A stretch of DNA of 64,000 nt from a candidate division Kazan bacterium GW2011_GWA1_50_15 (GTDB taxonomy: Bacteria > Patescibacteriota > Kazan-3B-28), in contig CP011216.1 of the NCBI GenBank assembly GCA_001029795.1, positions 6,903-70,902 on the forward strand, in the 5' to 3' direction. The position numbers were made by a program, and so were the translations under genes. Positions 1-42,675 of this stretch are shown here, piece after piece. Position 1 is the stretch's first letter, and the number at the start of each line of letters is the position of its first letter. The notes beneath the pieces were generated by a model. It was not told the DNA's origin. It was given only the letters and a program-made list of their open reading frames with translations, and did no database searches.

Positions 1-2
1 AC

Positions 3-197
3 GATATCCGTGACCGTCGGGAGAACATCCGGTGTATGGCCGAACTGATGGCTTTTGCTCTGCACGAGCGGGGGTATAGTGTGGAACGAGCGTTAGGGTG
101 GTACAATACCGGCCAATCTTGTGAGAATGATTACGCCCGACTCGTTGCTCGGCGGTATCGGCGGTGGGCTAAACAGGATGGCGTGAAGTCGATTTAA
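3..197 (+). CDS. 3' end of a CDS truncated by the window edge; hypothetical protein (C-terminus ...GWYNTGQSCENDYARLVARRYRRWAKQDGVKSI)
   Basis: Open frame 3 from the window start to TAA at 195-197; no start codon in window. Weak resemblance to SLT/lysozyme-like C-termini (WYN.G), not relied upon. Confidence 0.35.
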   Translation, partial: DIRDRRENIRCMAELMAFALHERGYSVERALGWYNTGQSCENDYARLVARRYRRWAKQDGVKSI

Positions 198-295
198 ACG
201 GCTCTCAGTGCCGACTAGGGCTAGTTAGATGGGGTTGCCTGTCTGACTAGCCCTTTATAGTATCCGGAGTGTATAATTGCTCCGTAAGTCATCAT

Positions 296-342
296 TCCCG
301 TGTAGCTCTCCGCCAGCTGGCGGAGGTAGAGCAATCGCCTGT
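296..342 (+). repeat. Duplicated 5' half of tRNA-Asn (acceptor/D-arm/anticodon stem to nt ~35) with a 16-nt perfect palindrome (tccgccagctggcgga, 309-324) replacing the D-loop
   Basis: Runs cattcccgtgtagctc and ggtagagcaatcgcctgt are identical to 588-603 and 608-625 of the intact tRNA-Asn at 591-665. Similarity stops inside the anticodon loop, exactly where the GIY-YIG ORF begins. Confidence 0.7.
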
Positions 343-346
343 GGAC

Positions 347-601
347 ATGTATACCGTTTATGTTATTTATAACCAGCAGCACGACAAGATTTATATCGGT
401 CAAACAGAAAGTCTGGCGGAGAGGTTGGTTCAACACAAAAATAAACTCCTTGGAGATAAGAGTTACACGGCTCGGTTTGATGGGGGGTGGGCGGTTATTT
501 ATACTGAACAGGTGGCTAGTAGGGTATTAGCAATACAGCGAGAGCGCCAGTTGAAAAGTTACAGAGGACGGCAGTTTGTCAGAGAATTCATTCCCGTGTA
601 G
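347..601 (+). CDS. Small GIY-YIG (URI-domain) nuclease family protein, 84 aa
   Basis: Motifs VYVIYNQQHDKIYIGQTESLAERLVQH (GIY...YIG) plus R and E downstream. The listed ORF (269-601) reads through the tRNA fragment; the likely start is ATG at 347 (MYTVYVIY...). The stop TAG lies inside the first nucleotides of tRNA-Asn. Confidence 0.6.
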   Translation: MYTVYVIYNQQHDKIYIGQTESLAERLVQHKNKLLGDKSYTARFDGGWAVIYTEQVASRVLAIQRERQLKSYRGRQFVREFIPV

Positions 602-665
602 CTCAGCGGTAGAGCAATCGCCTGTTAAGCGATGGGTCGCTGGTTCGAATCCAGCCGCGGGAGCC
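591..665 (+). tRNA. tRNA-Asn (anticodon GTT)
   Basis: Cloverleaf: acceptor tcccgtg/cgcggga, D-arm gctc/gagc, anticodon stem atcgc/gcgat with loop ctGTTaa, T-arm ctggttcgaatccag, CCA encoded. Resembles E. coli tRNA-Asn (UCC... CUGUUAA loop). Confidence 0.8.
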
Positions 666-756
666 ACATAAAAACGAGTCAAATGACCGAGGTGTCTATC
701 TTGGTTGATTTGGCGTTTGTTTATTAAAGCCTGTAAATCTGGTAAAATAAGTCGTC

Positions 757-1785
757 ATGAGCACAACTGATTTAATTAAAAAAATTGAGGAATTGCGAGG
801 ATCAAAGGTGGTAACCTATATCACTAGCGATCGCCCAGGTCCAGTCAGCGCAAAGGTTGCTATGGATGTCGTTCCAATTATTAGTCGCCAACTACGGGCA
901 ATCGGTAAAGTTGAAAAGATTGACCTGTTTTTATATAGTTCGGGTGGAGATACTTTGGTCCCGTGGCGGTTAGTGTCCATGATAAGAGAATATTGTGATC
1001 ATTTTTCTGTACTGATTCCATATAAAGCTCATAGTGCAGCCACTATGATTGCTTTGGGTGCTGATGAAATCGTAATGACTGACTTATCAGAGCTTTCTCC
1101 AATTGATCCATCAACTGCTAATGTCTTTAATCCAGTAGATCCGCAAAATCCTCAAGGGCGAATCCCAATTTCAGTAGAGGATGTAATGGCTTATTTCGAT
1201 TTAGTGAAGAATAAGTTTGGCATCAAGAATGATCCAGATCTAGCGGCCATGTTTGCCAAATTTACCGAGGCCAATCCACAGATTCATCCGTTAGCATTAG
1301 GGAATATTAATCGCATTCACAATCTTATTCGGATGATTGCCCGACGGCTGTTAAAAAGCCACCGAAACCCAATGGAGGAAGAAAACATCACTAAAGTGGT
1401 TGACGATTTGACTGAAAAGCTCTATTCACATCAGTACTTCATTGGCAGGAAAGAGGCGAAGGATGATATCGGCATTAAATCAGTATCAGAGGCGGGCGAT
1501 GATTTGGCCAAGGCGATTACTGATCTGTATGAAAATTATGAAGTCGAGGTTGGACTGGGAATTTCTCAATGGAATCCAGAAGAAGAACTTGGCGTTGGTA
1601 ATCCTCAGGGCCAAAAGGACTACACTATTGCAGTGATAGAGAGCATTTCTAACAGTCGGAAGTTTCATATAAATATGGAGTTTAAACGACAGGTGACTCC
1701 AGCTGTTCAGCAAACTCCGCAAGGTCCTATACAAATTCAACAAGAGCAGATCAGTTTTCGAGTTATTAATCAAGGGTGGAAGTAA
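757..1785 (+). CDS. ClpP/crotonase-fold serine protease of the SDH (serine dehydrogenase proteinase, S49-like) family
   Basis: N-terminal 120 aa match the family pattern: VVTYITSDRPG, DLFLYSSGGD, SAATMIALGADEIVM, SELSPIDP (catalytic Ser in the GxSAAT-type motif). A long C-terminal extension is present. Confidence 0.6.
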   Translation: MSTTDLIKKIEELRGSKVVTYITSDRPGPVSAKVAMDVVPIISRQLRAIGKVEKIDLFLYSSGGDTLVPWRLVSMIREYCDHFSVLIPYKAHSAATMIALGADEIVMTDLSELSPIDPSTANVFNPVDPQNPQGRIPISVEDVMAYFDLVKNKFGIKNDPDLAAMFAKFTEANPQIHPLALGNINRIHNLIRMIARRLLKSHRNPMEEENITKVVDDLTEKLYSHQYFIGRKEAKDDIGIKSVSEAGDDLAKAITDLYENYEVEVGLGISQWNPEEELGVGNPQGQKDYTIAVIESISNSRKFHINMEFKRQVTPAVQQTPQGPIQIQQEQISFRVINQGWK

Positions 1786-1791
1786 GGTATT

Positions 1792-2379
1792 ATGATTGTT
1801 AATTTTTTGAAGTGGATTCAAGAGTTTCTTAACAGCAATATAGGATTGGTGACTTTTGTAGTCAGCTTTTTGGTCATTTATCTTTATGCGAAACAAAAAG
1901 CTGATAAAAAACGTGATGCCGCGAGTTTGATATTACAAGAAATTAGATTCGCCGAGCAGTGCATTAGGACTTATTTAGAGAAATATCAATACCAATTGTC
2001 TGATAGGCTATTGCCAACGAATAGTTGGAATGATAATGTTCATATTTTTATTAATAATCTCGATCAAACAGAATTAGACTTGATTAATCGGTTCTATTCC
2101 AAAACCGCTTACATAGATGTTTTGATTGGTAAAATCTCTGATTTTAAAAATGCTCCTATTCAAATGGGCCAAACCGTCACACCTTCTCAATCAGTGGTAA
2201 TTGGGTCTCCTCCAATGTCGGGTGGCCAGCCTGCACCGATGGTTGTACCTTTTGACCCCCTATTTAATACACAAAATACTCTTGCGAGTGTTTCTCAGAG
2301 TGTAGAACAAATCTACAATACTCCGGCAGGGGAAAAACTTAAGAGAATAGCTAAGAGAAAATGGTACCAGTTAGTTTGA
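1792..2379 (+). CDS. Hypothetical single-pass membrane protein (N-terminal TM helix; Gly/Pro-rich C-terminal segment)
   Basis: Starts 7 nt after the protease stop, forming an operon. Hydrophobic segment IGLVTFVVSFLVIYLY. No recognisable domain. Confidence 0.45.
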   Translation: MIVNFLKWIQEFLNSNIGLVTFVVSFLVIYLYAKQKADKKRDAASLILQEIRFAEQCIRTYLEKYQYQLSDRLLPTNSWNDNVHIFINNLDQTELDLINRFYSKTAYIDVLIGKISDFKNAPIQMGQTVTPSQSVVIGSPPMSGGQPAPMVVPFDPLFNTQNTLASVSQSVEQIYNTPAGEKLKRIAKRKWYQLV

Positions 2380-3654
2380 GTCGGTATTTTTGAGATGTCC
2401 ATTTTGTAAGATTAATCGGTTGGCGATATTTGATAATATTTCTCTTTTTTCTTCCGGCTTGCCTTCTCGGAGGATGTATTTGGCATAAAGCTTGAGGTCA
2501 ACTCTTGGCAATTTTGTTTCTTCTGATGTCAGCCCAAGTATTCCTTGGGTGAATTTATGGTAGCGATCAATTTCTTCTTGGAGTTTTTCTTTCATTCCGA
2601 TTTGATCCAGTTCCAACTTGTCGATTAGTCCAACAAATTGCTCAATTAGATCGGCTTCTCGGGTATATGGCTGGTTACATCCAATTCTTTTACTATCAGT
2701 GCAGTGGTAATAGATATGGCGTTTCATATCACCATTTTTAAGTCGCTTGAATTTCTCCTCGGCAGTTATTCCTGCCCCGCAAGCTCCGCAAACCATTAGT
2801 TTGGTAAAAGCGAAACACTTTTCGCCATGCCGACCATGGGCTGGTCTGGACATTCTAATCTGCACCTCATCGAACAACTCTTTGGTAATAAGCGGTTCGT
2901 GCTTGCCTTGATAGCTTTCTTTACCATAAGTATAGTCGCCATAGTAAAAGGGATTTTTTAGTATCAGGAAGATTGAACTTAAGACTACTTTCTTGCCACT
3001 TCTAGTCGTGAAGTTAGTTTCGGTATTCAGCCAATTGAAAATATCTCTGCCAGAATAGCCCTGCTTGGCCACTTTATTGAACATTTCTTTAATAAGTGGG
3101 GCCCTATCGGGATCAACTTTAATAGTATTGTCTTCCTTAATGTTTAAATATCCCAGTGGAGCTACGCCTGGTCGCCAACCCATCTCGCATTTGGTTCGCA
3201 TACCTCGTTTGACATTGACGCCTTTGTTGTCGTTCTCTAGTTTGGCTTGACTACATAGAATCATTAAGAGGAACTTCTCGTTAGGGGAGTTACGGAATAT
3301 CTGCCCATGGGTACGGATCTCTTGCAGCAGTCCTTGATCCATTAAATCCACTAAAGAACCAAGATCACCAGCATTTCTGCTTAAACGGTCAGGAGCCCAA
3401 GTTAGAATACCATTGAATTCTCCAGAGCGGATTCTCTGCAAAAGATCCATATAGGCAGGCCGTTGGCCAGAATCTTTGGCCGAATGACTTTCTTTGATGG
3501 TTTCTACTACTTCCACTCCATCTCTCTCGGCAGCAGCCATCATCTCCTTGATTTGGGAATCAATGGAAAGGGCTTGTCTTTCGTCCTGTTCGGATGACTT
3601 CCTGGCATATAGACAGTACTTCACGGGCTCCTCTAAAATCTCTTCTTGCGTCAT
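2371..3654 (-). CDS. Large serine recombinase (resolvase/invertase N-domain + recombinase domain + zinc ribbon)
   Basis: YCLYARKSSEQDE...SIDSQ catalytic-Ser region, a recombinase domain and CGACGAG...HIYYHC Zn-ribbon. The ORF extends to 3759; I prefer the ATG at 3654 (MTQEE...) preceded by aaggagaagaat. Confidence 0.75.
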   Translation of the reverse strand: MTQEEILEEPVKYCLYARKSSEQDERQALSIDSQIKEMMAAAERDGVEVVETIKESHSAKDSGQRPAYMDLLQRIRSGEFNGILTWAPDRLSRNAGDLGSLVDLMDQGLLQEIRTHGQIFRNSPNEKFLLMILCSQAKLENDNKGVNVKRGMRTKCEMGWRPGVAPLGYLNIKEDNTIKVDPDRAPLIKEMFNKVAKQGYSGRDIFNWLNTETNFTTRSGKKVVLSSIFLILKNPFYYGDYTYGKESYQGKHEPLITKELFDEVQIRMSRPAHGRHGEKCFAFTKLMVCGACGAGITAEEKFKRLKNGDMKRHIYYHCTDSKRIGCNQPYTREADLIEQFVGLIDKLELDQIGMKEKLQEEIDRYHKFTQGILGLTSEETKLPRVDLKLYAKYILREGKPEEKREILSNIANRLILQNGHLKNTDSN

Positions 3655-3801
3655 ATTCTTCTCCTTTTGTCCATAGGGGTATATTAAGGGTAAGGATGCC
3701 CGAAAGAGGCCTAAAGTCCAGCTATTTTCAGATTTGGAAAAAGCTTCGCAAAGGGCCATAATGGAGTTAAGGTTAAGGCATATTTTATCTACTCATAGGC
3801 C

Positions 3802-4566
3802 ATGAAGAAGCTCAAATATCCTACAGATTTTCTCAATAAAATAATCTGCGGTGATGCCGTAGAGGTTATGAAACAGATTCCCGATGGATCTGTAGATTTG
3901 ATCGTTACATCGCCGCCTTATAATTTAAAAAATTCAACTGGCAATGGAATGAAAGATGGTCGTGGTGGAAAATGGGCCAACGCTGCTTTGCAGAATGGTT
4001 ACACTCATCACGATGACTGTATGCCCCATGATGAGTATGTGAAGTGGCAAAGGGACTGTCTCGCTCAAATGTTAAGGATAATTCCGGAAGAAGGGGCAAT
4101 TTTTTATAACCATAAATGGAGAGTCCAAGATGGTTTGCTCCAAGACAGACAGGATATTGTTAGTGGTTTTCCGGTCAGGCAAATTATTATTTGGAAACGA
4201 AAGGGTGGGCTGAACTTTAACGCCGGGTATTTCCTACCCACTTACGAAGTAATTTACTTAATAGCCAAGTCTAAGTTTAAGTTAGCTGATAAAGCCAATG
4301 CCCAAGGTGATGTATGGGAATTTACACAAGAAATGGGGAATGACCACCCCGCTGCTTTCCCAGTCACTTTAATTAATCGTATAATTTCATCTACCAATGC
4401 CAAGATGATCCTAGATCCCTTTATGGGATCAGGTACCACGGCAATTTCAGCCATAAATTATAATCGTAATTATATTGGGATAGACCTATCGCCAGAATAC
4501 TGCAAGATGGCAGAGAGAAGGATCGAGCTTCGTAAAAAACAAGTAAAATTATTAATAGAAGTATGA
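3802..4566 (+). CDS. Beta-class amino-DNA methyltransferase (N4-cytosine or N6-adenine); motif IV SPPY precedes motif I DPFMGSGTT
   Basis: DLIVTSPPYNL early and DPFMGSGTTAISA late, the same order as M.PvuII/M.MvaI/M.BcnI-type enzymes. Confidence 0.8.
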   Translation: MKKLKYPTDFLNKIICGDAVEVMKQIPDGSVDLIVTSPPYNLKNSTGNGMKDGRGGKWANAALQNGYTHHDDCMPHDEYVKWQRDCLAQMLRIIPEEGAIFYNHKWRVQDGLLQDRQDIVSGFPVRQIIIWKRKGGLNFNAGYFLPTYEVIYLIAKSKFKLADKANAQGDVWEFTQEMGNDHPAAFPVTLINRIISSTNAKMILDPFMGSGTTAISAINYNRNYIGIDLSPEYCKMAERRIELRKKQVKLLIEV

Positions 4567-5357
4567 AAAAACCGATTATTTACACTAAACCGTTGTTGAT
4601 CAAGAAGCTCAAGGAAATTTCCGAATTGGGCTGGATTCCCAATGCAAGAAAAGGCAACGCTGGCGGGATTGGGAACACCCTGGAGGATTTATTGGGGATA
4701 ACAGAAAATAACTTGCCAATACCTAATGCTGCCGAGTGGGAATTAAAAACCCAACGATTAGGTACTAGCTCGTTGACAACACTGTTTCATACAGAGCCGT
4801 CACCCCGTGCGATTAAATTTGTGCCCCAAATTTTGTTACCCAAGTATGGTTGGGCCCATCAGGAAGCAGGGGAACAATATCCTAAGGGCGAAATGAGTTT
4901 TCGTCAGACCATTCATGGGCAATCGAGAAGTGACAGAGGTTTTAATGTGGTGATAGATCGTGCAGAGAAGAAAGTACTAATCTCATTTGATGCCAAGAGT
5001 GTGGATATACGCCACAAAAGATGGCTAGAGTCAGTTAAAAAGAGGGTAGGGCTTAAAGAGCTCGATCCGCAACCGTATTGGGGATTTGACGATCTTGAGC
5101 ATAAGGCAGGCACGAAATTACTTAATACTTTTTATGTACAAGCAGAGACAAAGATTGAACGCAAAAAAGAATACTATCATTACACAAAAATAATGATGCT
5201 TCAGAAGTTCAGTTTCGAGGGATTTCTCAAAGCGCTTGAAGAGGGGTATATTTTAGTGGATTTTGATGCTAGAACGGGCCACAACCACGGAACAAAGTTT
5301 AGGATGCGCCAAGATGCTTTACCAATGCTGTACGAAAAAGTTACTACTATTTTGTAG
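4563..5357 (+). CDS. Type II restriction endonuclease, MvaI/BcnI-like family (putative)
   Basis: Start overlaps the MTase stop (ATGA). N-terminal region GNTLEDLLGITENN...AEWELKTQRL...LTTLFHTEP parallels the BcnI/MvaI pattern GQILERQFG.QENN...GEFELKG...LTLFHKKP (from memory of BcnI). Confidence 0.55.
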   Translation: MKKPIIYTKPLLIKKLKEISELGWIPNARKGNAGGIGNTLEDLLGITENNLPIPNAAEWELKTQRLGTSSLTTLFHTEPSPRAIKFVPQILLPKYGWAHQEAGEQYPKGEMSFRQTIHGQSRSDRGFNVVIDRAEKKVLISFDAKSVDIRHKRWLESVKKRVGLKELDPQPYWGFDDLEHKAGTKLLNTFYVQAETKIERKKEYYHYTKIMMLQKFSFEGFLKALEEGYILVDFDARTGHNHGTKFRMRQDALPMLYEKVTTIL

Positions 5358-5362
5358 AGGAT

Positions 5363-5956
5363 ATGGCAGTAGATAGCATTGCAGATAAACTGGGCAAATA
5401 TCTTGCGAAGGATATCCCTATCAATAACGAGGCCGAAGTCTTATATTTTTTAATTGAGATCGGAAAAATTCTGGAACGAGATGAGAATATAAAATTTCCA
5501 CTCATAAAATTTTATAGGGATTGGGCTTGTCATCCTCGTAAGGACGGAATGATTCAGGAGATGTTAGATATTGTTCAGAAGATATATCAAGACGCTAAAA
5601 ACCACATGCAATCTCCACATGGATTAGGTAAACCTGTGGCTATACTAGATTTTACAAGTGGCGACCATCTTAAGAAGCAGATGAAGATGTTTTTGGCGGA
5701 ATATGGTTTATCGGACGATAATTTACTGTCCGATAAGAATTGGAAGTGGTTTGCCTCGATGCTATGTAATGTCTTAGCCGAACAGCCTCTATATCCTAAG
5801 TCAGAAGGAGTGGATCATGTTGAGTTTTTGCCAGTTGTTCAGGGTGCAGTTGGAGTAAAAGTGATATTCACTGGTGTTGAGAAAGGATGGGACGATAAGG
5901 ATTATGAGTATTATCAATTTCTGAACTATTTAGGCTCTCTGTCAGATGATTCATAA
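5363..5956 (+). CDS. Hypothetical protein, 197 aa; third gene of the RM operon
   Basis: Starts 6 nt after the REase gene on the same strand. No recognisable motifs. Confidence 0.4.
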   Translation: MAVDSIADKLGKYLAKDIPINNEAEVLYFLIEIGKILERDENIKFPLIKFYRDWACHPRKDGMIQEMLDIVQKIYQDAKNHMQSPHGLGKPVAILDFTSGDHLKKQMKMFLAEYGLSDDNLLSDKNWKWFASMLCNVLAEQPLYPKSEGVDHVEFLPVVQGAVGVKVIFTGVEKGWDDKDYEYYQFLNYLGSLSDDS

Positions 5957-5980
5957 ATGAAACATTTTGTGCCCTGGTTG

Positions 5981-6173
5981 CCACTGTCTCATTTGTCTCA
6001 TTTTCAGGTATGGGGGATAGCGCTTAGTACTGTCGCATTTGTCGCATTTTCTCCTATGGTTCTACAACTGACCGAGCCAGGTTGTCTCATTCCTAAAATC
6101 CCCAGATTATCTCCTTGGGAATCCAATCTGAACCGACCTGTTGAGCCATTTAGGACAGTTAGCTACTTCAGCC
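5981..6173. repeat. Repeat copy 1: degenerate tRNA-Asn 3'-end-like (T-arm/acceptor) segment preceded by tandem ctgtc(t/g)cattt motifs; att-remnant-like
   Basis: Shares ctgtcgcatttgtcgcattttctcctatgg...attatctcct.tgg...ctgaacc.a.ctgttgagcca with copies at 15187-15343 and 17450-17596. The 3' flank taggac.gttag.ta.ttcagc is shared with copy 3. Overlaps the 3' end of the recombinase gene 6107-7606. Confidence 0.6.
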
Positions 6174-7606
6174 AGTAGATTGAAAGGAGAACTAAGCTCG
6201 TAGAGCAGGTTTTTCCCTTGTAATCGGCAGTTCCGAAGTAAAAGACTCAAAAGTTGCCGTTTTTCAGGCACTTCCGAACTTTCAAATATCTCGCAAGCCC
6301 GTTTTGCCAGATTGAATACCATATTTGCCGTTAAATAAAACTCTTCGTCAGCCTGACTGTGGGTATTCATTTCAGCCAATAACTCTGACTGTCTACCTTT
6401 CCACTCTCTCAGCTTTTTGTCGTATTCTTCCTGTGTAATACTACCGTCGAGCTTGTCCACATACATTTTGGATATGCGATTTTCAAGGCGGTCATACTCA
6501 GCCTTAAGGCTATCCATACTATCACGATGGTAGTGAGATTCGCTTTGCCCGATGGCTTTGAGCTCCCTTGTTAGCCCGTCTATGGTGTCTTGGGGCAGTT
6601 GAATGGCTCTCAGGGCATCGTAGACAGGCTTCAAGAGCTCCTTCTCGGGTATCCAAGCCCTTTCGCAGAGCCCCTTATAGTTAGTGCAACTGTAGTAGAT
6701 ATACTTGCCCTTCTTAAGCTCTGGGGTGATTAAACATCCGCACTTGTCGCATCTTATGAGACCTCTAAAGATAAAGGGTTTAGCTTTGGATTTAAATGAC
6801 TTCTTGTTGTAGCCCGCCATTATGGTTTGGCACTTATCAAATAGCCACTTGGGAATCAGTGGCTCGTATTTGTGAGGATATTCCTTACCCTTAACGACCA
6901 TAACTCCGTGGTAAAAGGGATTTTTCAGATTCTTATGAACAAGACTGTTAGGGATTTGTTTCCCGTTTCTGGTCATCAACCCCGTCTTGTCTAACTCTTG
7001 TTTAATAGTTTTGACTGAATGCTGACCTGTCGCATAAAGCTCAAACATTCTTCTTATTGAATGGGCTCTTTCTGGGTCTGGGATGATTGTCTTTTTACCA
7101 TCAGGCAGGTCTTGGTTGATGTAGCCGATTGGAGCCATCCCTGCCCACTCCCTATTTAATATTTTTTGACTAAGGCTACGCTTCACATTGTCGCTTAGTT
7201 GCAAAACATAGCTTCGGGCAAACATTACTCCCATATCCCAACGAAGCAGGTCGGAGCTATTAGATTGGTCGTTGAGTATCAGGTTCTCTCGGATAAAGTG
7301 GATTTCTAATCTGCCATTCTTGCGGAACTCGTCCAATGTAACTGATTCCTTAAAACTGCGCTGTAGGCGGTCTATGGTTTCTACTACTAAAGTTACGGGT
7401 TCCTTGGAGGTGCTAATCTCGTTAATAACTAACTCAAACTTTTTGCGTTGGTCTTTAGTGGAAGACTCGTCAAATTGATATTCGCTCTGGACATCTAAAT
7501 TTCTGTCTTGGCACCATTGTCTTGAGCGGGCAAGTTGGGCGGGGATAGACTGTCCGTCCTGTATTTGTTCTTCTGTTGAAACTCGGGCTAAGATGACGGC
7601 TTTCAT
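6107..7606 (-). CDS. Large serine recombinase (second copy, distinct sequence)
   Basis: MKAVILARVSTEEQ...SIPAQ N-terminal resolvase motif, recombinase domain and Cys-rich zinc ribbon CDKCGC...YYSCTNY. Confidence 0.8.
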   Translation of the reverse strand: MKAVILARVSTEEQIQDGQSIPAQLARSRQWCQDRNLDVQSEYQFDESSTKDQRKKFELVINEISTSKEPVTLVVETIDRLQRSFKESVTLDEFRKNGRLEIHFIRENLILNDQSNSSDLLRWDMGVMFARSYVLQLSDNVKRSLSQKILNREWAGMAPIGYINQDLPDGKKTIIPDPERAHSIRRMFELYATGQHSVKTIKQELDKTGLMTRNGKQIPNSLVHKNLKNPFYHGVMVVKGKEYPHKYEPLIPKWLFDKCQTIMAGYNKKSFKSKAKPFIFRGLIRCDKCGCLITPELKKGKYIYYSCTNYKGLCERAWIPEKELLKPVYDALRAIQLPQDTIDGLTRELKAIGQSESHYHRDSMDSLKAEYDRLENRISKMYVDKLDGSITQEEYDKKLREWKGRQSELLAEMNTHSQADEEFYLTANMVFNLAKRACEIFESSEVPEKRQLLSLLLRNCRLQGKNLLYELSSPFNLLAEVANCPKWLNRSVQIGFPRR

Positions 7607-10600
7607 AGATTATTTTCTTTTGCAATTTGTAGGTATAAGCGGTTGACCTCTTTGTCCACATCACGCATTTTAGAATCATTCTTATAGCCAAGATGAGCTT
7701 CCTTCGATAGGTTAACAAGTGCTTTGTGCGCACTATTGTTAGGGTCATACTTGGGGATATATACAGGGGGTCGAATCTTAAAGGTCCGACTGTCTGAGGA
7801 TAATAACACAAATTTTTGTGTGATAGGGGCATTTAGGATGGCACAAATGAAGTGGGCTTCGTCGATTGTGATAAAGCCTCCCTTGGCATCTTCGCAGATA
7901 GATACGGCGTGGTTCTGAAAGAGCGGATGTCTTACCCCGCCCCATTCAGTATCCACGTCGGACACGACCACAGCCTGCCATTTTGTGTTGTCTCGAAAAC
8001 AGACATAATTTCTTGCAAAGCTATAAGCCCCCACCCTTGCTAAGGCGTAAAACTCCTGCTCTTTTTTGCCAATAATCTTTGCATTGTATTCTGTTTGATT
8101 CTCAAACATCTTTTTGTAGTTTACGAAATAGGTGGCGAGTAAGGGACTTTTTTCTTTTAATATTTTGAGATTCAAAGGGACACGAGTGCTAACCTCCTTA
8201 TCGTATGGAAATGGAACAACATAATTGTCGTCTGTGTTGAGATGATATCTTTCAATATCGACACCCTTGATTAGGGGGTGTAGATATTCTTTCTCTACTA
8301 AAATAGTTTGCTGACCTATCTTATACTTTGACTTTTGATTTTGATAATTGTTAAGATATACCTTCCCAGTTAGGGCTTTTATCTCTAAATCGGCTTTGAA
8401 CAGAAGGAGCTCCTGTGGATAGAATTCGATGCCCTCTCTACCTAAATAATAAGAGCTACCCGAGATTGAATTGAAATCTTGTATGTCAGATTTATTATTA
8501 GCATAAGTAAAAGCCGTGTTTTCATCATTGCACTGACCAAGATACCCCTCTTTTTTAATAAAGAATTCTTTTACATTCTCAAACTTAGAGTAATGATTGA
8601 TTTCCTCAATCGGCTTTTTAGTGTTTTTCTTGTAAATCTCTAAGTTAATGCCTTTCTTGTAGTCAGTTTTGTTGCTTGATATAAAGTAGGTTAAAAACTT
8701 ATGCTGGACAGGTTTGAAAGGATGACCCGCTCCTGTCCAATCAACAATTTTTTGGAAGTAAAATCTTGTGCCATCTGAAATATAAAAATTCCTAAAACCC
8801 TCATAAGTCTGTTGGAATAGGAGATTCTGTGGCATCAGGAAAGAAAGCACCCCGTCTTTTTTTAGCCAGTTATCAACAGCGACATTCGCAATAAGAGCAC
8901 AGATATTGAGATTAATACCCCCAGTAATACCATCGCCTGAGAATAGGTGTCTTTCGATGCAGAGAGATTTCACCCTTTCTCGATAACCCTCAGGTAGGCT
9001 TTTCCAGTCAATCCAGGGCGGATTGCCGACTATCAGGTCAAATTTGCCGAGATTGGCAGTGGTAAGAAAATTCGTAACAATACGAGCCCAGATACCATTC
9101 CACTCGTTTTTCTCGAGTTCAACGAATCTGCTGGACAAGTCCTGGATATTTGAAATTATATCGTTGTTAATGTCTGCCTTGTTTACTAAAGCAACTATCT
9201 TATTAAAAACCGCCTTTTCATCTAATGCTTTGATATCTTGTTCGATTGCAGTCATTGTCCTTGAAAATAGACCAGAATCAGCCACTGCACTTTTGGGTAA
9301 GGTAACGTCGAGGTATCCTTTAAGGGTTTTGATTTTGTAGTTTAAGCAATCAACACCTGAGACCTTGGTTTCTTCTGGAACATATGAAGAATCGCCCAGG
9401 TAAACTGGGATTTCTATGTCTCCATCGTCAGTAATCAAATGAGCGATATTGATAAAGTAGTTTATTCTACAAGTCAGCACTGCTAACGGGTTCAGGTCAA
9501 TTGCCTTAACACGATTCAATATGCTCTTTAAGCGATTCTCTTTGCTGTTATCAGATGCTTCTTCGTTGATAATTTTCTCAATCAGAACAGTTATAAATGT
9601 TCCAGACCCAGCACAAGGGTCTAATCCTCTCCAATTTGGCTTATTATCCAACATTTCGATTGTCTCTGTAACAAGGTGGTCGGCAAGCCAAGCTGGTGTA
9701 TAGAATTCACCTAAGCTATGCCTAACTTTTAATGGGATTATTTGCTCGTATAGTTCTTTAAATAAATCTTGAGCACGGGTCTCTTCCTGAGATAAAATCT
9801 TGTCTTCATATTTTGTAAGAGTATGAAAGGTTTCCTTAACTATTTCATAAATGTCGTCGCTCCATTGACCAGGTGATGCATACCAAGAGAAAAAGTCTCC
9901 CTCAAGGAGATTAGTGATACCCAGAGACCTAAAGACAGCTCCATCTTCAAGTGCCTCCATTTGCTTCTGAATGACGGAACTGTTGCTGACAGCCAGCTCG
10001 TTGAATTGGATGATATTTTTCTTGAACTTAATTTTACTTGTAACCTTATAGGCAATTATTTTGATAATTATTGCATAAGCCGTTTGTAGAGAATATAGGG
10101 CTAAATATTCCTCTGCATTGGTTTTGATTTTGATACCCAAACTCCTCCCCAGTGCATGTCTTCTTTCTTCAATAGCCAATTGTTTAGACTTGTCGTTATG
10201 TGCAAGTCTAAACAATTCTCGCCACTCTTCAAAGAGCATCAGAGTTTTGCCAGTAGCTTTATTGTTAAGGGTGTCAAAAAGAATTTTTGCCAACCTTTTT
10301 GATAGAGAGCAATCAAGAGGTTCACAAAAATCTTTGACAAGGTTTTTTGAGTTAAGGGCTACTAAGTCAAGGATTAGTATCGACCTAATTATTCTGTCCA
10401 AATATCTATCCGAGATATCTCCCCAAGCTTCCTCATAAATTTTACCGTGTTCACATCTTATAAACTTTAAAATAATCCCGTCTGTAACAAGACCAAGATA
10501 GTCGTTCTGATTTTTTGCATATAAACCAGAAAGATAGTCAGTTAATTGTTGGTCCGCACTATCCTTATGTGCTTTTGTTTTTAGTTTACTCGGGTGCTTG

Positions 10601-10863
10601 AATTCAATAATGAATCCACCATACTTGCTGTCTATCCTTCCTTTGGTTATGTGCCGTTCAGTATTGACCAACTTTTCCTTCTGGGGATAGTATTTAATTC
10701 CTAAGTGGTCAGACAAAAAGGCAAATAAGTTGATTTCAAAAACACTTACAACAGTAGCTTCATTTTCTGCCGTCTCTGAGCCTCGGCGTATAGACAAAGC
10801 CAAGTCGACAAGCTTTTCTCTGTATTCAGTAGTGTCTAAAAAACTAAGGTTTTTGCTTTCCAT
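7603..10863 (-). CDS. Type IIG/IIL-like fused restriction-modification enzyme (N-terminal PD-(D/E)xK nuclease + gamma-class N6-adenine MTase + C-terminal target-recognition region), 1086 aa
   Basis: IDSKYGGFIIEFK (D...ExK) near the N-terminus. MTase motif I LDPCAGSGTF and motif IV IVGNPPWIDW. Size and layout resemble MmeI/BpuSI-type enzymes. Start overlaps the recombinase stop (ATGA). Confidence 0.6.
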   Translation of the reverse strand: MESKNLSFLDTTEYREKLVDLALSIRRGSETAENEATVVSVFEINLFAFLSDHLGIKYYPQKEKLVNTERHITKGRIDSKYGGFIIEFKHPSKLKTKAHKDSADQQLTDYLSGLYAKNQNDYLGLVTDGIILKFIRCEHGKIYEEAWGDISDRYLDRIIRSILILDLVALNSKNLVKDFCEPLDCSLSKRLAKILFDTLNNKATGKTLMLFEEWRELFRLAHNDKSKQLAIEERRHALGRSLGIKIKTNAEEYLALYSLQTAYAIIIKIIAYKVTSKIKFKKNIIQFNELAVSNSSVIQKQMEALEDGAVFRSLGITNLLEGDFFSWYASPGQWSDDIYEIVKETFHTLTKYEDKILSQEETRAQDLFKELYEQIIPLKVRHSLGEFYTPAWLADHLVTETIEMLDNKPNWRGLDPCAGSGTFITVLIEKIINEEASDNSKENRLKSILNRVKAIDLNPLAVLTCRINYFINIAHLITDDGDIEIPVYLGDSSYVPEETKVSGVDCLNYKIKTLKGYLDVTLPKSAVADSGLFSRTMTAIEQDIKALDEKAVFNKIVALVNKADINNDIISNIQDLSSRFVELEKNEWNGIWARIVTNFLTTANLGKFDLIVGNPPWIDWKSLPEGYRERVKSLCIERHLFSGDGITGGINLNICALIANVAVDNWLKKDGVLSFLMPQNLLFQQTYEGFRNFYISDGTRFYFQKIVDWTGAGHPFKPVQHKFLTYFISSNKTDYKKGINLEIYKKNTKKPIEEINHYSKFENVKEFFIKKEGYLGQCNDENTAFTYANNKSDIQDFNSISGSSYYLGREGIEFYPQELLLFKADLEIKALTGKVYLNNYQNQKSKYKIGQQTILVEKEYLHPLIKGVDIERYHLNTDDNYVVPFPYDKEVSTRVPLNLKILKEKSPLLATYFVNYKKMFENQTEYNAKIIGKKEQEFYALARVGAYSFARNYVCFRDNTKWQAVVVSDVDTEWGGVRHPLFQNHAVSICEDAKGGFITIDEAHFICAILNAPITQKFVLLSSDSRTFKIRPPVYIPKYDPNNSAHKALVNLSKEAHLGYKNDSKMRDVDKEVNRLYLQIAKENNL

Positions 10864-11041
10864 AAGTGTTCTGATGCAAGAATTGGCTAAAAGTTTTTTT
10901 GTCGATTCTATATTCTTTGCCGAATTTATAGACCTTTAACTTGCCAGCTTTTATATAGCGGTAAATCGTCATTATGTTGACCTGCAGTTTCTCGGCTAAC
11001 TCCTGGGCTGTATAGAAATCTTTTTCCATAGTAATCCTCAT
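10844..11041 (-). CDS. Excisionase-family helix-turn-helix DNA-binding protein (AlpA/Xis-like)
   Basis: YTAQELAEKLQVNIMTIYRYIKAGKLKVYKFGKEYRI matches the excisionase-family HTH pattern. 3' end overlaps the start of the Type IIG gene. Confidence 0.6.
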   Translation of the reverse strand: MRITMEKDFYTAQELAEKLQVNIMTIYRYIKAGKLKVYKFGKEYRIDKKTFSQFLHQNTYGKQKP

Positions 11042-11068
11042 TACGTTAGTATTATACTTTACAATGCT

Positions 11069-12190
11069 TTACATCTCAAATCTGGGTTTGTAAGGTTGAA
11101 ATTCATCAATCTGAGCAATGACTTGCTTAACCCAGCCGTCATATTGGGCGGGGGATTTGTTGAGGTTTTTTAGCTCTTTTACGATTCGAGTCCAAGTGCG
11201 AGGGTTGGCTCTGTTGTTTAGCATTTGTCGTAATTCTCTTATGCCTGTTGCGTCTTTAGCCAAGAGATATAAGCCCGTAAGAAAGATGGCTTGTTTGTGT
11301 TTGATTTTAGGGTGGTTAATCAGGATGGTATTAAGAATTTGCTTGGGCTTAATGTCGCTGGTAAAGATAAATAAGTTGTGGTTGGCTATGAGCTCTTGCC
11401 AGTAGTAGCTCACTACCTTTTGCGAGGTGCCGCTACAGAAAACATCTTTAAATGTGGGATTCTTGGGGTATCCGAGTTTCTGGAGTAAAGAATTGAGTTT
11501 ACGCCTGTCAGCAATGCGTATTTCCACTCTAAGAATTTCAAGTTTTTGTTCTTGGGCTTGTTCAAATAAAGAGCGTTGAATATAGTTTTGGTCTTTGTCT
11601 ATGGAACGGTTTTTGGTCTTCTGGATGTCTTGGATTTTGTCATAAAAGACAAGGGAATTCGAGGTGGCATAGTATTGCAGGGATTGCCCATCGTTCTGAA
11701 ACCCGTGCCGTGTAATATCCAGTTTTTTAGATATGTTTACCTTCATTAGCTCTTTGATTACGAAGCTTGGGGTGTAGCCATCCTCAAGTTCAATATTTTT
11801 GGAGTAGTGGACTGCGGATACCTGTGCAGTGGCTAACAGGGGTTTTAGTATGTTAACCCCAATATCCCTAAGACTGTTGGTTAGTCTTTCAAGCACGGCA
11901 TCAAAGTCGCTATCGGTCAGTTCTTCCAGATTGTTGCCGTATAGCAGTTTAGGGGCTGAAAACTGGATAGTTAGCTCCTGTGCTATCTGACCATCTTTTG
12001 TCCATCTTTTCGTAAGGGTTAGGCAGGGTCTGTAGTGATGCAACCGTCTTTCTTCGGCAGTCGGGTTGTTTGTGATTTTGCTTATGGGTTTTTCATACTT
12101 AGTGAAATCATCAGCATTTTTGCTGAATTTATCGGGTTTTGAGATGTAATATTGCCCCTTAGGAATTTTTAGGACGATTGTGTCTATCAT
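11069..12190 (-). CDS. Hypothetical protein, 373 aa; possibly a replication/mobilisation initiator of the integrated element
   Basis: No firm motif. Position within a recombinase-bearing element and basic/Tyr-containing segments suggest a Rep-like role; this is an unverified guess. Confidence 0.3.
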   Translation of the reverse strand: MIDTIVLKIPKGQYYISKPDKFSKNADDFTKYEKPISKITNNPTAEERRLHHYRPCLTLTKRWTKDGQIAQELTIQFSAPKLLYGNNLEELTDSDFDAVLERLTNSLRDIGVNILKPLLATAQVSAVHYSKNIELEDGYTPSFVIKELMKVNISKKLDITRHGFQNDGQSLQYYATSNSLVFYDKIQDIQKTKNRSIDKDQNYIQRSLFEQAQEQKLEILRVEIRIADRRKLNSLLQKLGYPKNPTFKDVFCSGTSQKVVSYYWQELIANHNLFIFTSDIKPKQILNTILINHPKIKHKQAIFLTGLYLLAKDATGIRELRQMLNNRANPRTWTRIVKELKNLNKSPAQYDGWVKQVIAQIDEFQPYKPRFEM

Positions 12191-12399
12191 TGCGTTTATA
12201 TTTTTGGGGATTATTACGCTGGTCTACTTTAAAGAGAATTGCCATAAATTGGACGAGTTTACCCCAGTCCTCTTGAGAGAGATTTTTCAGGGTCGGATTA
12301 CCGAGGCTGGATTGTTGGTTGTTTGCAGACATAAAAATAACCTCTGTTTTGAGGTTACAAAATGCTGTGTTTGCAGAACTCTGCGAGGTAGTCTGCAGA

Positions 12400-13551
12400 C
12401 TATTCGAGGTATTTTTTGTTGAGCTGGAGCGTAGTTTTTTTCATAATTACAAAATCCCTAATCCTGGTTTGCTTGGCTATCTCCTCGTTGAGGTCATAGG
12501 TGGCATTGTAGAGCTTCTTCCAATGCTTGCGAGGGTTATACTCAATGCTCTTGCCAAAGAGTTTTTCCCAAAGTTCATCGACATCCCAGACTTTTGTGGG
12601 GGCTTTGAATACTGCTTTGAGTAGATAGTGGGGGTTGCTGTCGAGAGTTTTAGAGATGATAGCTCTGTGAACCTGAAATACCAACTCGCTTGTTTTGGGG
12701 TTGAAGGCGGTTGGGCATTTTGTCAGCACTTTGGTTGGCTGGTTTTCTTCTTGGAGAGTTTTGTTTTTTAGCGTAACCCTGACCTTATAAGTCATTGTTT
12801 CCTTCTCGGGAGGGACATCCCAGTCCGTTACCCAGATTGCATTAACATCAAAATATCCCTGCTTTTCCAAGGCAATCAGGGTATGTATGAACAGACCCTG
12901 TCTCTCTGCCAAGATATAACTTGGGAATGGATTGGGGGTATTTTGACCAGGGTTTTGCACCACAAAGGTGTTGCCAAGGTCTCTGCTCTCCATTTTGAGC
13001 TCCCGTAACATCCGCTCCTTTTGTCTATCGAATTTGTAGTAATTATCTTTTTCTACAGCCAGGTTATCAGATATAAATGCTTCAATGTAAGATGTCAGAA
13101 AACTATCCAGCCTATCCTGGGTTTTCTTGCTGAGTATAGTTGGGAACTCAAACCACTCTGCCAACTTGTATTTTTCGGATATCATTCCTATCGCTATAAA
13201 GTCTTGATAGGTAAACTCATTTTTCTTCAGGGCTTCTATCGAGTTTGCTATTCCTTCGCTAACACCATCTTCAATGTGCTGGCTCCACTCATCATCATTG
13301 GTGTAGGTGTAATATCCTTTAGAGTTGAAAGAGAGACCATCTATCTCGATACCCATATTTTTCATATGGAGGCTTAGTAATGCCAAGCACACGCCCAAGG
13401 TCGAGAAGTCGGGAGCAGCGAGGTCTTCAAATCCTATGGGGTTTTTGGTGGTCAACCTGTGCGCATTAGCATACTTCCAGAGTCCATATAGGATTTTCTC
13501 TGGCAGATAGGGGCACTGCTTCAATTTTTGGGGGTTGGACGCTTGCTTCAT
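12400..13551 (-). CDS. Hypothetical protein, 383 aa
   Basis: Long ORF in the AT-rich island with no recognisable domain. Confidence 0.35.
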   Translation of the reverse strand: MKQASNPQKLKQCPYLPEKILYGLWKYANAHRLTTKNPIGFEDLAAPDFSTLGVCLALLSLHMKNMGIEIDGLSFNSKGYYTYTNDDEWSQHIEDGVSEGIANSIEALKKNEFTYQDFIAIGMISEKYKLAEWFEFPTILSKKTQDRLDSFLTSYIEAFISDNLAVEKDNYYKFDRQKERMLRELKMESRDLGNTFVVQNPGQNTPNPFPSYILAERQGLFIHTLIALEKQGYFDVNAIWVTDWDVPPEKETMTYKVRVTLKNKTLQEENQPTKVLTKCPTAFNPKTSELVFQVHRAIISKTLDSNPHYLLKAVFKAPTKVWDVDELWEKLFGKSIEYNPRKHWKKLYNATYDLNEEIAKQTRIRDFVIMKKTTLQLNKKYLE

Positions 13552-13652
13552 ACTCTCTTTACTTTAGTTTACAACAGTATGATAGTCGACCTATGATGTA
13601 GGGGATGTATAAGCGAAGAAGACAGCCAGCACTAAAACTGAGGCAATCACTT

Positions 13653-13728
13653 GCCTCTGTAGCTCAATGGACAGAGCAACTGTCTTCTGAACAGTAGGTT
13701 GAGGGTTCAAATCCCTCCAGAGACACCA
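13653..13728 (+). tRNA. tRNA-Arg (anticodon TCT), embedded at the right end of the island
   Basis: D-arm gctc/gagc, anticodon stem actgt/acagt with loop ctTCTga, T-arm gagggttcaaatccctc, CCA encoded. One C-A mismatch at acceptor pair 2:71. Confidence 0.6.
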
Positions 13729-13787
13729 AGGGCAATGACGGCACTTTCTGATTGTGCTTTTTCTGCTTGTCCTGCTACGATGTAGGC

Positions 13788-14294
13788 ATGACGATGAAGA
13801 CTACCAAGCTACCCCCGAAGGCACTCAAAGCAGTTGATGTGGGGCGGTATTTTATACATCTCTCCAATGAGGCAGGGAAGCCAATAACCAACAAAAAGCT
13901 ACAAAAGCTGGTCTATTACTCTCAGGCTTGGTCATTGGTGCTTAACGATAAAAAGCTCTTTGGTGAGCCTATTGAAGCGTGGGTTCACGGACCTGCTGTG
14001 CGAAGCCTGTATGTTCAATACAAGCCATTTGGCTTTGGTCCAATACGGGAAACGATAAGCGTTCAGGATGTCAAAAAAATATCTGGCAAGGTCAAGAAAC
14101 TCCTTGATGACATCTGGCAGGTTTATGGCAAGTTAGATGCCAGTTATCTTGAAATGCTGACCCATTCTGAACAGCCTTGGCTGACTGCTCGGGATGGACT
14201 ACAGGGGCACGAGAACTCTGAGAAGGAAATATCTTTAGACAGTATGAAGAGCTTCTATACCGACAAGCTCCAAAAGTCTAAAGGTAGAAAATGA
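13788..14294 (+). CDS. Panacea-domain (DUF4065, SocA-like) antitoxin-type protein
   Basis: KLQKLVYYSQAWSLVLNDKKLFGEPIEAWVHGPAVRSLY matches the DUF4065/Panacea core. The ORF is listed from 13752; internal Met preferred. Confidence 0.55.
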   Translation: MTMKTTKLPPKALKAVDVGRYFIHLSNEAGKPITNKKLQKLVYYSQAWSLVLNDKKLFGEPIEAWVHGPAVRSLYVQYKPFGFGPIRETISVQDVKKISGKVKKLLDDIWQVYGKLDASYLEMLTHSEQPWLTARDGLQGHENSEKEISLDSMKSFYTDKLQKSKGRK

Positions 14295-14737
14295 CAGATA
14301 TTCCCAAAGGTGTAGTTCAGCCCTCTGAAGAGGGGGGTATAGAGATAACCCAATCGGTTGCTGAACTGCCCGAGGAAAGCGAAGCTCCAGAGGCGAGCCC
14401 TTATTTGATTTCTTTTGCGAAGTATAACGAGAGAGAGTGCCAGATTGCTGATTTGCAGGGGAATATGGGTAAAAAGGCGTTGTTAATACTAAAGGCAATA
14501 GGCACTAAGATAAAGTGCATTGCAGACTTTGCTACTCATAATGTTGAAAGGCGTCCCATAAGGCGGGAGGGGGACTATTTGAAACTGTATAGGGGTCTCA
14601 GTGATGATATTGACCTTCACGAAGCCAACCTACAAAGCACGGGTAGGATTTTCTATTTTGATGTGGAGCCAGACAGGTTGCTCTATGTGGTCGCAATTAC
14701 CAATCGCCATTTTGAGACGGGCAAGGTTAGGCGGTAG
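14291..14737 (+). CDS. Putative RelE/ParE-fold toxin partner, 148 aa
   Basis: 4-nt overlap with the upstream Panacea gene. C-terminal RIFYFDVEPDRLLYVVAITNRHFE resembles the RelE/ParE C-terminal motif (R.YY....L.v..I.H). Confidence 0.4.
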   Translation: MTDIPKGVVQPSEEGGIEITQSVAELPEESEAPEASPYLISFAKYNERECQIADLQGNMGKKALLILKAIGTKIKCIADFATHNVERRPIRREGDYLKLYRGLSDDIDLHEANLQSTGRIFYFDVEPDRLLYVVAITNRHFETGKVRR

Positions 14738-14857
14738 CCAGCCCCCGTTCCAATAACGGCAGGATGCCCGAATACCCCAATTCCTGTTTGATAACCTTCC
14801 AGTCAACTGTTCTAAACTTGTCCAATAGGGGGAGCCAACCAGTGCGCGAGCAAAGCG

Positions 14858-40792: not shown

Positions 40793-42675
<1,883 letters not shown>

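Follow-up and report, generated by a model that had tools for sequence, protein, structure and literature searches.

SegB, a free-standing GIY-YIG homing endonuclease of T-even phages, is associated with tRNA genes and cuts within them, and it drives the tandem segmental amplification of its own locus via homologous recombination (PMC13096335; PMC2330249). Intronless homing, and collaborative homing of a free-standing endonuclease with an intron that lacks an open reading frame (ORF), are established concepts (PMC3984707), and tRNAs of the Candidate Phyla Radiation (CPR; Patescibacteria) can carry group I introns (PMC8172020). Here we describe a locus in a 64,000-nucleotide (nt) stretch of candidate division Kazan bacterium GW2011_GWA1_50_15 (contig CP011216.1, positions 6,903 to 70,902; hereafter the window), in which the gene for an 84-amino acid (aa) GIY-YIG nuclease lies between a partial copy of the 5′ half of tRNA-Asn, designated the pseudo-tRNA, and the intact tRNA-Asn gene. 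With a probability of about 55%, we consider the pseudo-tRNA and the ORF to be a long-lived selfish cassette resembling a homing endonuclease, which sits in tRNA-Asn of many CPR bacteria and whose host tRNA is regenerated by duplication of the 5′ segment.

The cassette shares with SegB and the other Seg enzymes the presence of an intron-free GIY-YIG gene among or beside tRNA genes, and the amplification driven by SegB mirrors the tandem units and the concerted evolution described below. However, SegB is a phage gene of about 220 aa that has a DNA-binding domain and a stop codon of its own and that lacks a duplicated target, whereas the cassette is chromosomal, is found CPR-wide, and encodes a bare 84-aa domain fused to the 5′ end of a tRNA, always with a hairpin-disrupted 5′ duplicate. 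The sequence similarity between the Seg enzymes and the 84-aa protein is confined to the GIY-YIG motif. A group I intron with its homing endonuclease is likewise a selfish element within a tRNA gene that spares the tRNA function, and the window's upstream copy ends at the site between nt 35 and 36 where such introns interrupt tRNA-Asn of relatives, but the cassette has neither ribozyme nor splicing, and its tRNA is restored at the DNA level and presumably freed by RNase P. Islands and prophages that target tRNA genes also leave a partial tRNA copy at one end and thereby preserve function; they carry an integrase and duplicate the 3′ part of the tRNA, whereas the cassette is without a recombinase and duplicates the 5′ part. 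No description of the tRNA-nested arrangement was found in the searchable full-text literature, and the recurrence of the layout in hundreds of these ultra-small CPR bacteria suggests an undescribed kind of selfish gene cassette, which spares the host gene by duplication instead of splicing.

The features of the window locus are listed in Table 1. Two exact direct repeats (100% identity) were detected by the repeat search, one of 17 nt (TCATTCCCGTGTAGCTC; 292-308 and 588-604) and one of 18 nt (GGTAGAGCAATCGCCTGT; 325-342 and 608-625), and beyond these no 100% repeat longer than 12 nt was present in the first 3 kb of the window. An earlier note on this DNA, made from the sequence alone, had reported that the 5′ half of tRNA-Asn is repeated at 296-342, and the exact repeats recovered this copy together with its leader TCAT. 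The same note had described a D-loop exchanged for a perfect 16-nt palindrome, a break of the copy near anticodon-loop nt 35, an 84-aa GIY-YIG ORF starting 4 nt later, and a stop codon inside the first bases of the tRNA, all of which agree with our analysis: the palindrome TCCGCCAGCTGGCGGA at 309-324 separates the two repeat blocks where the tRNA has AGC (605-607), the last bases of the copy, CTGT, end at anticodon-loop nt 35, GGAC then precedes the ATG at 347, the protein matches the Pfam GIY-YIG family, and the TAG stop coincides with tRNA nt 8-10. Only the position of the tRNA, given there as 591-665, was off by one. The upstream copy was called as a tRNA by neither ARAGORN nor Rfam. An Rfam scan of window positions 1-3000 for a ribozyme or other known RNA returned the tRNA alone, with no Intron_gpI even at E ≤ 1. 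The cassette is not encoded by an intron, because there is no ribozyme; the ATG follows only 4 nt after the pseudo-exon, and the 3′ end of the ORF leads directly into the tRNA. The predicted RNA fold of 285-360 was an extended D-arm hairpin, the stability of which was no greater than that of shuffled sequences (z = -0.5).

Table 1. Features of the cassette locus, in window coordinates
Feature	Position	Strand	Basis or remark
TATAAT box, with TG at 270-271	272..277	+	Read from the sequence; about 18 nt 5′ of the pseudo-tRNA start
Upstream copy, segment A: leader TCAT (4 nt) and tRNA-Asn nt 1-13 (acceptor 5′ strand, nt 8-9, D-stem 5′ strand)	292..308	+	100% identical to 588-604
16-nt palindrome/hairpin TCCGCC-AGCT-GGCGGA in place of D-loop nt 14-16 (AGC)	309..324	.	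Also 5′ of the ORF in 80/80 related loci
Upstream copy, segment B: tRNA-Asn nt 18-35 (D-loop GG, D-stem 3′ strand, anticodon stem 5′ strand, loop to T35)	325..342	+	100% identical to 608-625
Spacer GGAC (4 nt) between pseudo-tRNA and start codon	343..346	+	Sequence
Single-domain GIY-YIG nuclease ORF, 84 aa; stop TAG (599-601) from tRNA nt 8-10	347..601	+	Pfam PF01541, E = 1.1e-12
Intact tRNA-Asn(GTT), CCA encoded; sole tRNA-Asn found in the window	592..666	+	ARAGORN; Rfam RF00005, 70.9 bits

The TATAAT box is presumed to be the original promoter of tRNA-Asn, now driving the pseudo-tRNA, the ORF and the tRNA together. A scan for consensus promoters and terminators gave nothing useful, leaving this box uncalled with no -35 match present; in many related loci TATAAT boxes stand 10-30 nt 5′ of the pseudo-tRNA. 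The public annotation of the nuclease (P0001, 110 aa) begins at GTG 269 and translates through the pseudo-tRNA, and we regard it as an overcall because this start reads across the pseudo-tRNA. Public databases list the same protein, at 110 aa, as a 'GIY-YIG catalytic domain protein' from candidate division Kazan bacterium GW2011_GWB1_52_7. An identical layout was present in four independent assemblies of the window strain.

Related loci, denoted here by L and a number, were collected by a scan of one genome per GTDB species, which yielded at least 526 loci, and the best 80, from many CPR lineages, were examined. All 80 belong to CPR. A protein search gave 147 homologues, nearly all of 82-84 aa and from Patescibacteria/CPR; overcalled N-termini among them, such as 'GVALRQLAEVE', are the translated half-tRNA and palindrome, and the C-termini 'IPV*' or 'SPVAQW*' are the translated 5′ end of the tRNA. 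In all 80 loci the ORF is preceded by a tRNA acceptor 5′ strand with a hairpin-bearing D-arm and directly followed by the 5′ end of a tRNA (Asn 78, Thr 1, Lys 1). ARAGORN identified tRNA-Asn(GTT) 3′ of the ORF in 65 loci, and in 54 of these the tRNA started no more than 8 nt from the end of the ORF match. The exceptions are tRNA-Thr(CGT) at L059 and tRNA-Lys(TTT) at L075, and in the other 13 loci the 5′ part of tRNA-Asn follows the ORF but either is split behind CTGT (nt 35) or is cut off there by the end of the contig. In 69 of these 80 loci the ORF terminates on a stop codon that belongs to the tRNA, namely the TAG of nt 8-10 (57 loci), the TAG of nt 19-21 (6 loci) or a codon within nt 35-42 (6 loci, five with the anticodon-loop TAA). 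Since the same layout recurs in 80/80 loci, the arrangement in the window is no one-off accident.

The encoded protein consists of one GIY-YIG domain spanning residues 1-71, which matched the Pfam model with 48.5 bits against a cut-off of 22.6. The residues Y5, Y16, G18, R26, H30 and E66 were invariant in 33 homologues. An AlphaFold2 model (predicted local distance difference test score 94.5) has strands at residues 2-9, 14-20 and 48-56 and three helices; the protein thus has the motifs and catalytic residues of the GIY-YIG superfamily and, in the model, the predicted alpha/beta fold with a three-stranded sheet. In a Foldseek search, UPF0213 proteins (1zg2, 1ywl) and the Slx1 nuclease domain came first (TM 0.61-0.69), followed by I-TevI and UvrC-N. 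The UPF0213/COG2827 proteins (BH0048, PDB 1zg2; EF2693, PDB 1ywl) are the best profile and fold matches and likewise have a single GIY-YIG domain of about 90 aa, but the similarity is marginal (E about 1e-3). The profile search against PDB sequences gave weak matches of E = 9e-4 for 1zg2 and 5e-3 for 1ywl, and neither tRNA linkage nor a function is reported for UPF0213 proteins in the searchable literature. Slx1 cuts branched or hairpin DNA in a structure-specific manner, an activity that would suit an enzyme associated with a hairpin. A weak match to TIGR01453, a group I intron endonuclease family, was below the cut-off (E = 3.7e-5), and PHROGs, PADLOC and NCBIfam gave motif-level matches only. 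The family comprises 804 clusters at 50% identity (E ≤ 1e-10), and a few members have two fused domains.

For six homologue pairs the ratio of nonsynonymous to synonymous substitution rates (dN/dS) was 0.09-0.16, with dS of 0.56-2.2, and by this measure the ORF is under purifying selection. Together with the invariant catalytic residues, this ratio indicates that the nuclease is functional and that the pseudo-tRNA copy is not in neutral drift. As part of the selfish-cassette reading, and with the confidence given to that reading as a whole, the ORF would encode a minimal but active DNA nuclease of the GIY-YIG class, of the Slx1/UPF0213 type.

The upstream copy was found to follow the tRNA of its own locus. 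The acceptor 5′ strand of tRNA-Asn occurs in 26 forms across the loci, and the 9-mer formed by this strand and nt 8-9 was identical between upstream copy and own tRNA in 60 of 78 loci and one base off in 13, while the best match of the same 9-mer between loci averaged 2.2 mismatches. Odd D-stems are mirrored in the upstream copy (GCGC/GCGC in L001, GCTT/AAGC in L053), and the identity between copy and tRNA often reaches 4-12 nt into the leader (e.g. L005, L014, L063, L071 and L080). Because the copy matches the tRNA even where synonymous sites are saturated (the dS values above, between genomes with identical tRNAs), the upstream copy must be either homogenised with the real tRNA or constrained. 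Homogenisation at the DNA level would be the likelier of the two, because unpaired leader bases are also identical. For the same reason, RNA pairing of the upstream copy with the 3′ half of the tRNA is disfavoured as the cause of conservation. The concerted evolution of the duplicated segment includes non-functional leader bases.

At L059 and L075 the upstream copy matches the acceptor and D-arm of the local tRNA-Thr and tRNA-Lys, respectively, which indicates that the cassette entered other tRNA genes and that the 5′ duplication was derived from the target. About 21 of the 80 loci have the rpoD gene immediately 5′ of the cassette. A sample independent of the cassette was obtained by a metagenome scan with an intron-less tRNA-Asn pattern, and in the resulting 31 low-GC loci a GIY-YIG ORF was found directly upstream of tRNA-Asn in 5, downstream in 2, and not at all in 24. 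When the rpoD-linked tRNA-Asn loci of this sample were considered, 6 of 8 were without the cassette (L145, L148, L155, L171, L181 and L199). The genome closest to that of the window is L148 (rpoD C-terminus 90% identical in aa, 10 kb of syntenic genes 70-76% identical in nt), where 42 nt and then tRNA-Asn follow the rpoD stop codon, without a cassette. The comparison with a related genome, which the earlier note had proposed as a check, thus found both cassette and half-tRNA missing from the syntenic site. L173 is an ORF-less remnant, in which leader, segment A, hairpin and segment B abut the tRNA; with the six empty loci it gives a presence/absence polymorphism of the homing-endonuclease type at a conserved site, including a degenerate remnant. 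L062 contains a perfect tandem of a 300-nt unit (A, hairpin, B, ORF) and an older decayed copy, and extra hairpin-bearing copies lie between ORF and tRNA in L053, L076, L001, L055 and L068. The earlier proposal of a mobile insertion that duplicated its target is supported by the derivation of the copy from the local target, by the cassette-free L148 and by the remnant L173, but the event was not recent or private, because the layout is CPR-wide, the ORF is under purifying selection, and it has diverged about as much as its flanks in close pairs.

More distant small GIY-YIG genes (37-52% identity) were seen just 3′ of tRNA-Asn at L163:5795-5956 and L179:1570-1740. A divergent subfamily (about 40-44% identity) has the upstream layout with other GC-rich hairpins splitting the pseudo-tRNA (L141, L200 and L216).

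The upstream copy ends at nt 35 in the window, in L079, L008, L016, L054 and L015, and also in L141 of the divergent subfamily. Its distal segment is TTGGCTGT in L008, L001, L064 and L141, and in the three main-family loci among these, L008, L001 and L064, it mismatches the local anticodon stem. The junction 'CTGT then ATG' recurs, and even L075, where the tRNA is tRNA-Lys, has 'CTGT-CAT-ATG'; the cassette seems to carry the segment up to nt 35 along with it. In most loci the ungapped similarity between copy and local tRNA stops at nt 25-29, which fits distal decay or deletion together with short conversion tracts near the D-arm. Group I introns detected by Rfam (59-84 bits) split tRNA-Asn after nt 35 in L003, L006, L019, L035, L044 and L055, and several loci hold both the cassette and a tRNA-Asn intron. 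In cassette loci the introns sit in the downstream, real tRNA, where they are ORF-less or carry an HNH-like ORF and never the GIY-YIG gene. This intron ORF encodes 110 aa with the pattern CxxC...HH...CxxCH (L044:3304-3636; also in L019 and L022 after CTGT), and its match to Pfam AI2M-like_HNH had E = 0.006, below the cut-off. With it, a tRNA gene that already has the cassette upstream would host two different selfish elements.

Present with a conserved sequence in 80/80 loci, the palindrome is a constant part of the layout rather than a D-loop that happened to decay. The stem TCCGCC/GGCGGA is kept in about 77 of 82 instances, with compensatory changes only in three variants (L032, L036 and L067), while the 4-nt centre varies (AGCT 54, AGCC 9, AACT 7, AGTT 3, GGCT 2). 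A test for an origin of its first three bases in the local D-loop gave a weak trend, with AACT loops occurring mostly where the local D-loop starts with AA. Usually it replaces the 3 nt before G18 of the pseudo-tRNA, and in six loci nt 9-11. A second palindrome is found in the acceptor stem in L028 and L060, in L141 the palindrome is in the anticodon stem, and in at least 7 loci it is nested in the loop of another copy. Away from the cassette, further examples cap the tips of longer stems (L011:730, L036:2159). The window contains three copies, against 0.01 expected by chance. One lies in dnaK (ORF 32218-34320), where TCCGCCAGTTGGCGGA at 32865-32880 is in frame and encodes SPPVGG in a variable loop before a 12-residue motif. 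The third, at 42438-42453, is within a group-I-like intron near the 3′ end of the 16S rRNA (RF00028, 30.3 bits, E = 2e-5, below the gathering score), and the tRNA-Asn intron of L016 bears the palindrome at a similar position ('ATCGGTGAA...'). Outside the cassette zone, 7 copies were counted in 388 kb of cassette-bearing loci, against none in 205 kb of low-GC loci that lack the cassette (Poisson P = 0.025), and this co-occurrence is suggestive only. A scan of viral contigs gave 55 hits, mostly in high-GC sequence and probably due to chance, and none was D-arm-like or linked to a GIY-YIG gene.

Within 42351-42678, the 16S rRNA gene is interrupted by this intron near its 3′ end after GGGTGAAGT, and the 16S terminus resumes at about 42629. 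At L066:3345-3420 an extra palindrome stands just 3′ of the real tRNA-Asn, followed by an apparent 3′ fragment of a tRNA, CGAATCCTACTCCCGGAGCC.

Conservation of the stem where synonymous sites are saturated points to recognition by a trans-acting factor or to continual re-creation of the palindrome. The linked nuclease would be the obvious candidate for either role, and we know of no mechanism that inserts such a palindrome. The GGAGG of the hairpin 3′ arm was considered as a Shine-Dalgarno sequence and rejected, as it can lie anywhere between about 9 nt and over 40 nt from the ATG and does not exist in the nt 9-11 variant. Repetitive extragenic palindromic (REP) elements, and the Rickettsia palindromic elements (RPE) that insert in frame into genes and RNAs, resemble the palindrome in that it appears to be dispersed and is tolerated in dnaK, introns and tRNA-like sequence, often at stem tips. 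It differs from them in being far shorter (16 nt), self-nesting and tightly linked to one nuclease gene, and no RAYT-type or other transposase is known to us for it. We tentatively propose, as a possibility that falls short of being probable, that nuclease and palindrome together form an undescribed two-part mobile system. In it, the bare Slx1-like domain would recognise or create TCCGCC-N4-GGCGGA, and the cassette would persist CPR-wide in an essential tRNA unit restored by 5′ duplication. As a joint element of this tentative proposal, the activity of the nuclease would insert hairpins at stem tips, either incidentally or as one of its steps, and the sites concerned would be the D-loop of the pseudo-tRNA, its acceptor and anticodon stems, the hairpin's own loop, the tRNA-Asn and 16S introns, and dnaK.

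The selfish-cassette reading draws on what was observed, namely the anatomy, its conservation, purifying selection, concerted evolution, and the presence/absence, remnant, tandem and ectopic states, and the following course of events is proposed for it. The first insertion would have occurred at anticodon-loop nt 35/36 of a tRNA-Asn gene, which is the site of group I introns in relatives, and the host gene would have been restored by duplication of the 5′ segment, doing without splicing the job of a group I intron and its homing endonuclease. The tRNA promoter would transcribe the whole unit of pseudo-tRNA, ORF and tRNA, and translation of the ORF would end on the UAG of tRNA nt 8-10. RNase P would free a normal tRNA and simultaneously remove the stop codon from the mRNA, so that the level of the nuclease would be kept low; tRNA release and low nuclease levels would make the cassette nearly harmless without any ribozyme. 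The nuclease would break DNA of the tRNA type at or near the locus, and repair would recombine the repeated tRNA segments. Such repair could copy the cassette into empty alleles, keep the upstream copy identical to the local tRNA, occasionally yield tandem units and ORF-less remnants, and now and then insert the cassette into other tRNAs sharing the D-arm. Within the upstream copy, the palindrome would split the 35-nt direct repeat, along with any site of cleavage and any fold resembling a tRNA, and would thereby protect the cassette from deletion or cutting and prevent the copy from recombining with the real tRNA.

Several observations weigh against a selfish cassette. The 84-aa protein is a bare catalytic domain without a DNA-binding module, and it is the DNA-binding domain that gives I-TevI and the Seg enzymes their specificity; the hallmark of Seg/Mob-type enzymes, a catalytic domain tethered to a separate DNA-binding domain, is lacking here. 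In most loci an intact tRNA-Asn gene adjoins the nuclease gene, and if the tRNA gene were the target, this neighbour would be cut. When close pairs were compared, the identity of the ORF was similar to that of the flanks (76 versus 75% for L028/L060, 78 versus 78% for L015/L071, 70 versus 80% for L040/L071). The ORF has thus diverged about as much as its flanks, which indicates mainly vertical inheritance on short time scales, and no recent transfer was caught among these pairs. The correlation between ORF and tRNA distances, intended to tell vertical from horizontal inheritance, gave no information (r = 0.08); protein identity was saturated near 60%. A mere role as a repeat-breaker leaves the strictness of the palindrome's sequence conservation unexplained, and long-term purifying selection would equally be expected of a gene that benefits its host.

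The bare domain, the surviving intact tRNA and the mostly vertical inheritance keep alive the idea that the gene has been domesticated. It would then be an accessory housekeeping nuclease for DNA repair or structure-specific cleavage, of the UPF0213/Slx1-like kind, whose expression is coupled to tRNA-Asn in an operon; we find this account rather unlikely as a whole, while giving it serious weight. The same grade applies to two of its parts, that the pseudo-tRNA and hairpin act as a cis-regulatory 5′ leader in stability, processing or autoregulation, and that the unit descended vertically from an early CPR ancestor with repeated losses. The strong purifying selection, the match between ORF and flank divergence in close pairs, and the occurrence of the cassette in many CPR phyla at the same rpoD-linked site are in line with a host gene, as are the nearest folds, UPF0213 and Slx1 rather than I-TevI, and a hairpin conserved in sequence as an operator recognised by protein or RNA would be. 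Yet a housekeeping operon fits poorly with the lack of the cassette in most rpoD-linked CPR tRNA-Asn loci of the cassette-independent sample and in the closest relative L148, with an ORF that has no stop codon of its own, and with concerted evolution that takes in non-functional leader bases; moreover, the tandem units, the ORF-less remnant and the ectopic tRNA-Thr and tRNA-Lys copies look like selfish dynamics.

An origin from an intron, which the earlier note had raised as an element later resolved by duplication, was also considered. On this view a group I intron at nt 35/36 of tRNA-Asn originally housed the ORF and then lost its ribozyme. Recombination would have placed a copy of the spliced or precursor tRNA behind the ORF and so rescued the gene, with 5′ exon, ORF and full tRNA as the outcome, and the cassette would now be essentially immobile. 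We judge this unlikely. The part of the suggestion that stood is the end of the window copy at CTGT, a genuine group I site that is used in six related loci, and the start codon at or near the anticodon-loop position in several loci and the weak TIGR01453 match mentioned above point the same way; the part that did not stand is a ribozyme, of which no remnant was found in 343-591 (Rfam in E-value mode). In addition, the introns of the related loci occupy the downstream tRNA and never contain the GIY-YIG gene, and the similarity of the copy ends at nt 25-29 rather than 35 in most loci. Such a history would account for how the cassette arose, but it leaves the hairpin, the tandem units and the concerted evolution unexplained. 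It is highly unlikely that the cassette is instead a circular, integrase-type element, with the duplicated segment as attL and attR, produced when a small circle whose attP resembles the tRNA 5′ part underwent site-specific recombination. The layout can be written as such a circle (hairpin, B, ORF, leader, A) with crossover within nt 1-13, and the non-local B segments of L008, L001 and L064 would fit an element-borne B, but A, B and leader usually match the local tRNA, the sole ORF of the unit is an 84-aa hydrolytic nuclease, and the serine recombinase gene found at 2371-3759 is part of another island, located 3′ of the tRNA. The unit accordingly lacks what marks integrase islands, having no recombinase and duplicating the 5′ part of the tRNA. 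A chance similarity or an assembly artefact has a negligible probability: these are metagenome assemblies, in which tandem copy numbers (L062, L053) could be mis-assembled, but the exact 17- and 18-mers, the four independent assemblies of the strain and the 80 genomes from different studies speak against it.

If the selfish-cassette reading is right, duplication would be a third way, besides self-splicing introns and inteins, for selfish nuclease genes to live inside essential genes: the cassette would rebuild the interrupted gene by 5′ duplication and borrow the promoter, RNase P processing and stop codon of the tRNA. It is widespread in CPR, a large and little-understood share of bacterial diversity, and affects what is apparently their only tRNA-Asn gene. 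There are also consequences for annotation and assembly, as the ORF is overcalled as 110 aa across the pseudo-tRNA and at least 11 of 80 contigs end at the tRNA. With an 84-aa nuclease and a 16-nt conserved hairpin as its only parts, the pair would also lend itself, through its small size, to studies of how minimal GIY-YIG domains recognise their targets.

Other features were noted around the cassette. In the spacers of L002, L010, L013, L022, L066, L074 and L079, a TATAAT-like box lies 0-12 nt before the ORF start, and in these loci the ORF may have its own promoter and possibly a leaderless mRNA; unlike them, the window has only the 4-nt GGAC between pseudo-tRNA and ATG. At least 11 of the 80 contigs end within about 80 nt past the ORF, at the 3′ end of tRNA-Asn (e.g. 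L021, L025, L036, L052, L054, L063, L067 and L071), which suggests that strain-variable, assembly-breaking DNA lies downstream of this tRNA. In the window, a segment of about 17 kb 3′ of tRNA-Asn (about 680-17900) is missing from L148, and synteny resumes at 17901. It contains an SDH-type ClpP-like protease gene (757-1785) and a gene for a large serine recombinase (2371-3759, minus strand), and is probably a genomic island beside the tRNA, of the same general kind as the tRNA-targeting islands compared above; a large serine recombinase also abuts the 3′ end of tRNA-Asn in L044. Three tRNA-Met(CAT) genes lie within 2 kb (20116-20190, 21022-21096 and 21961-22035), one on the plus and two on the minus strand, and two of them are kept in L148.

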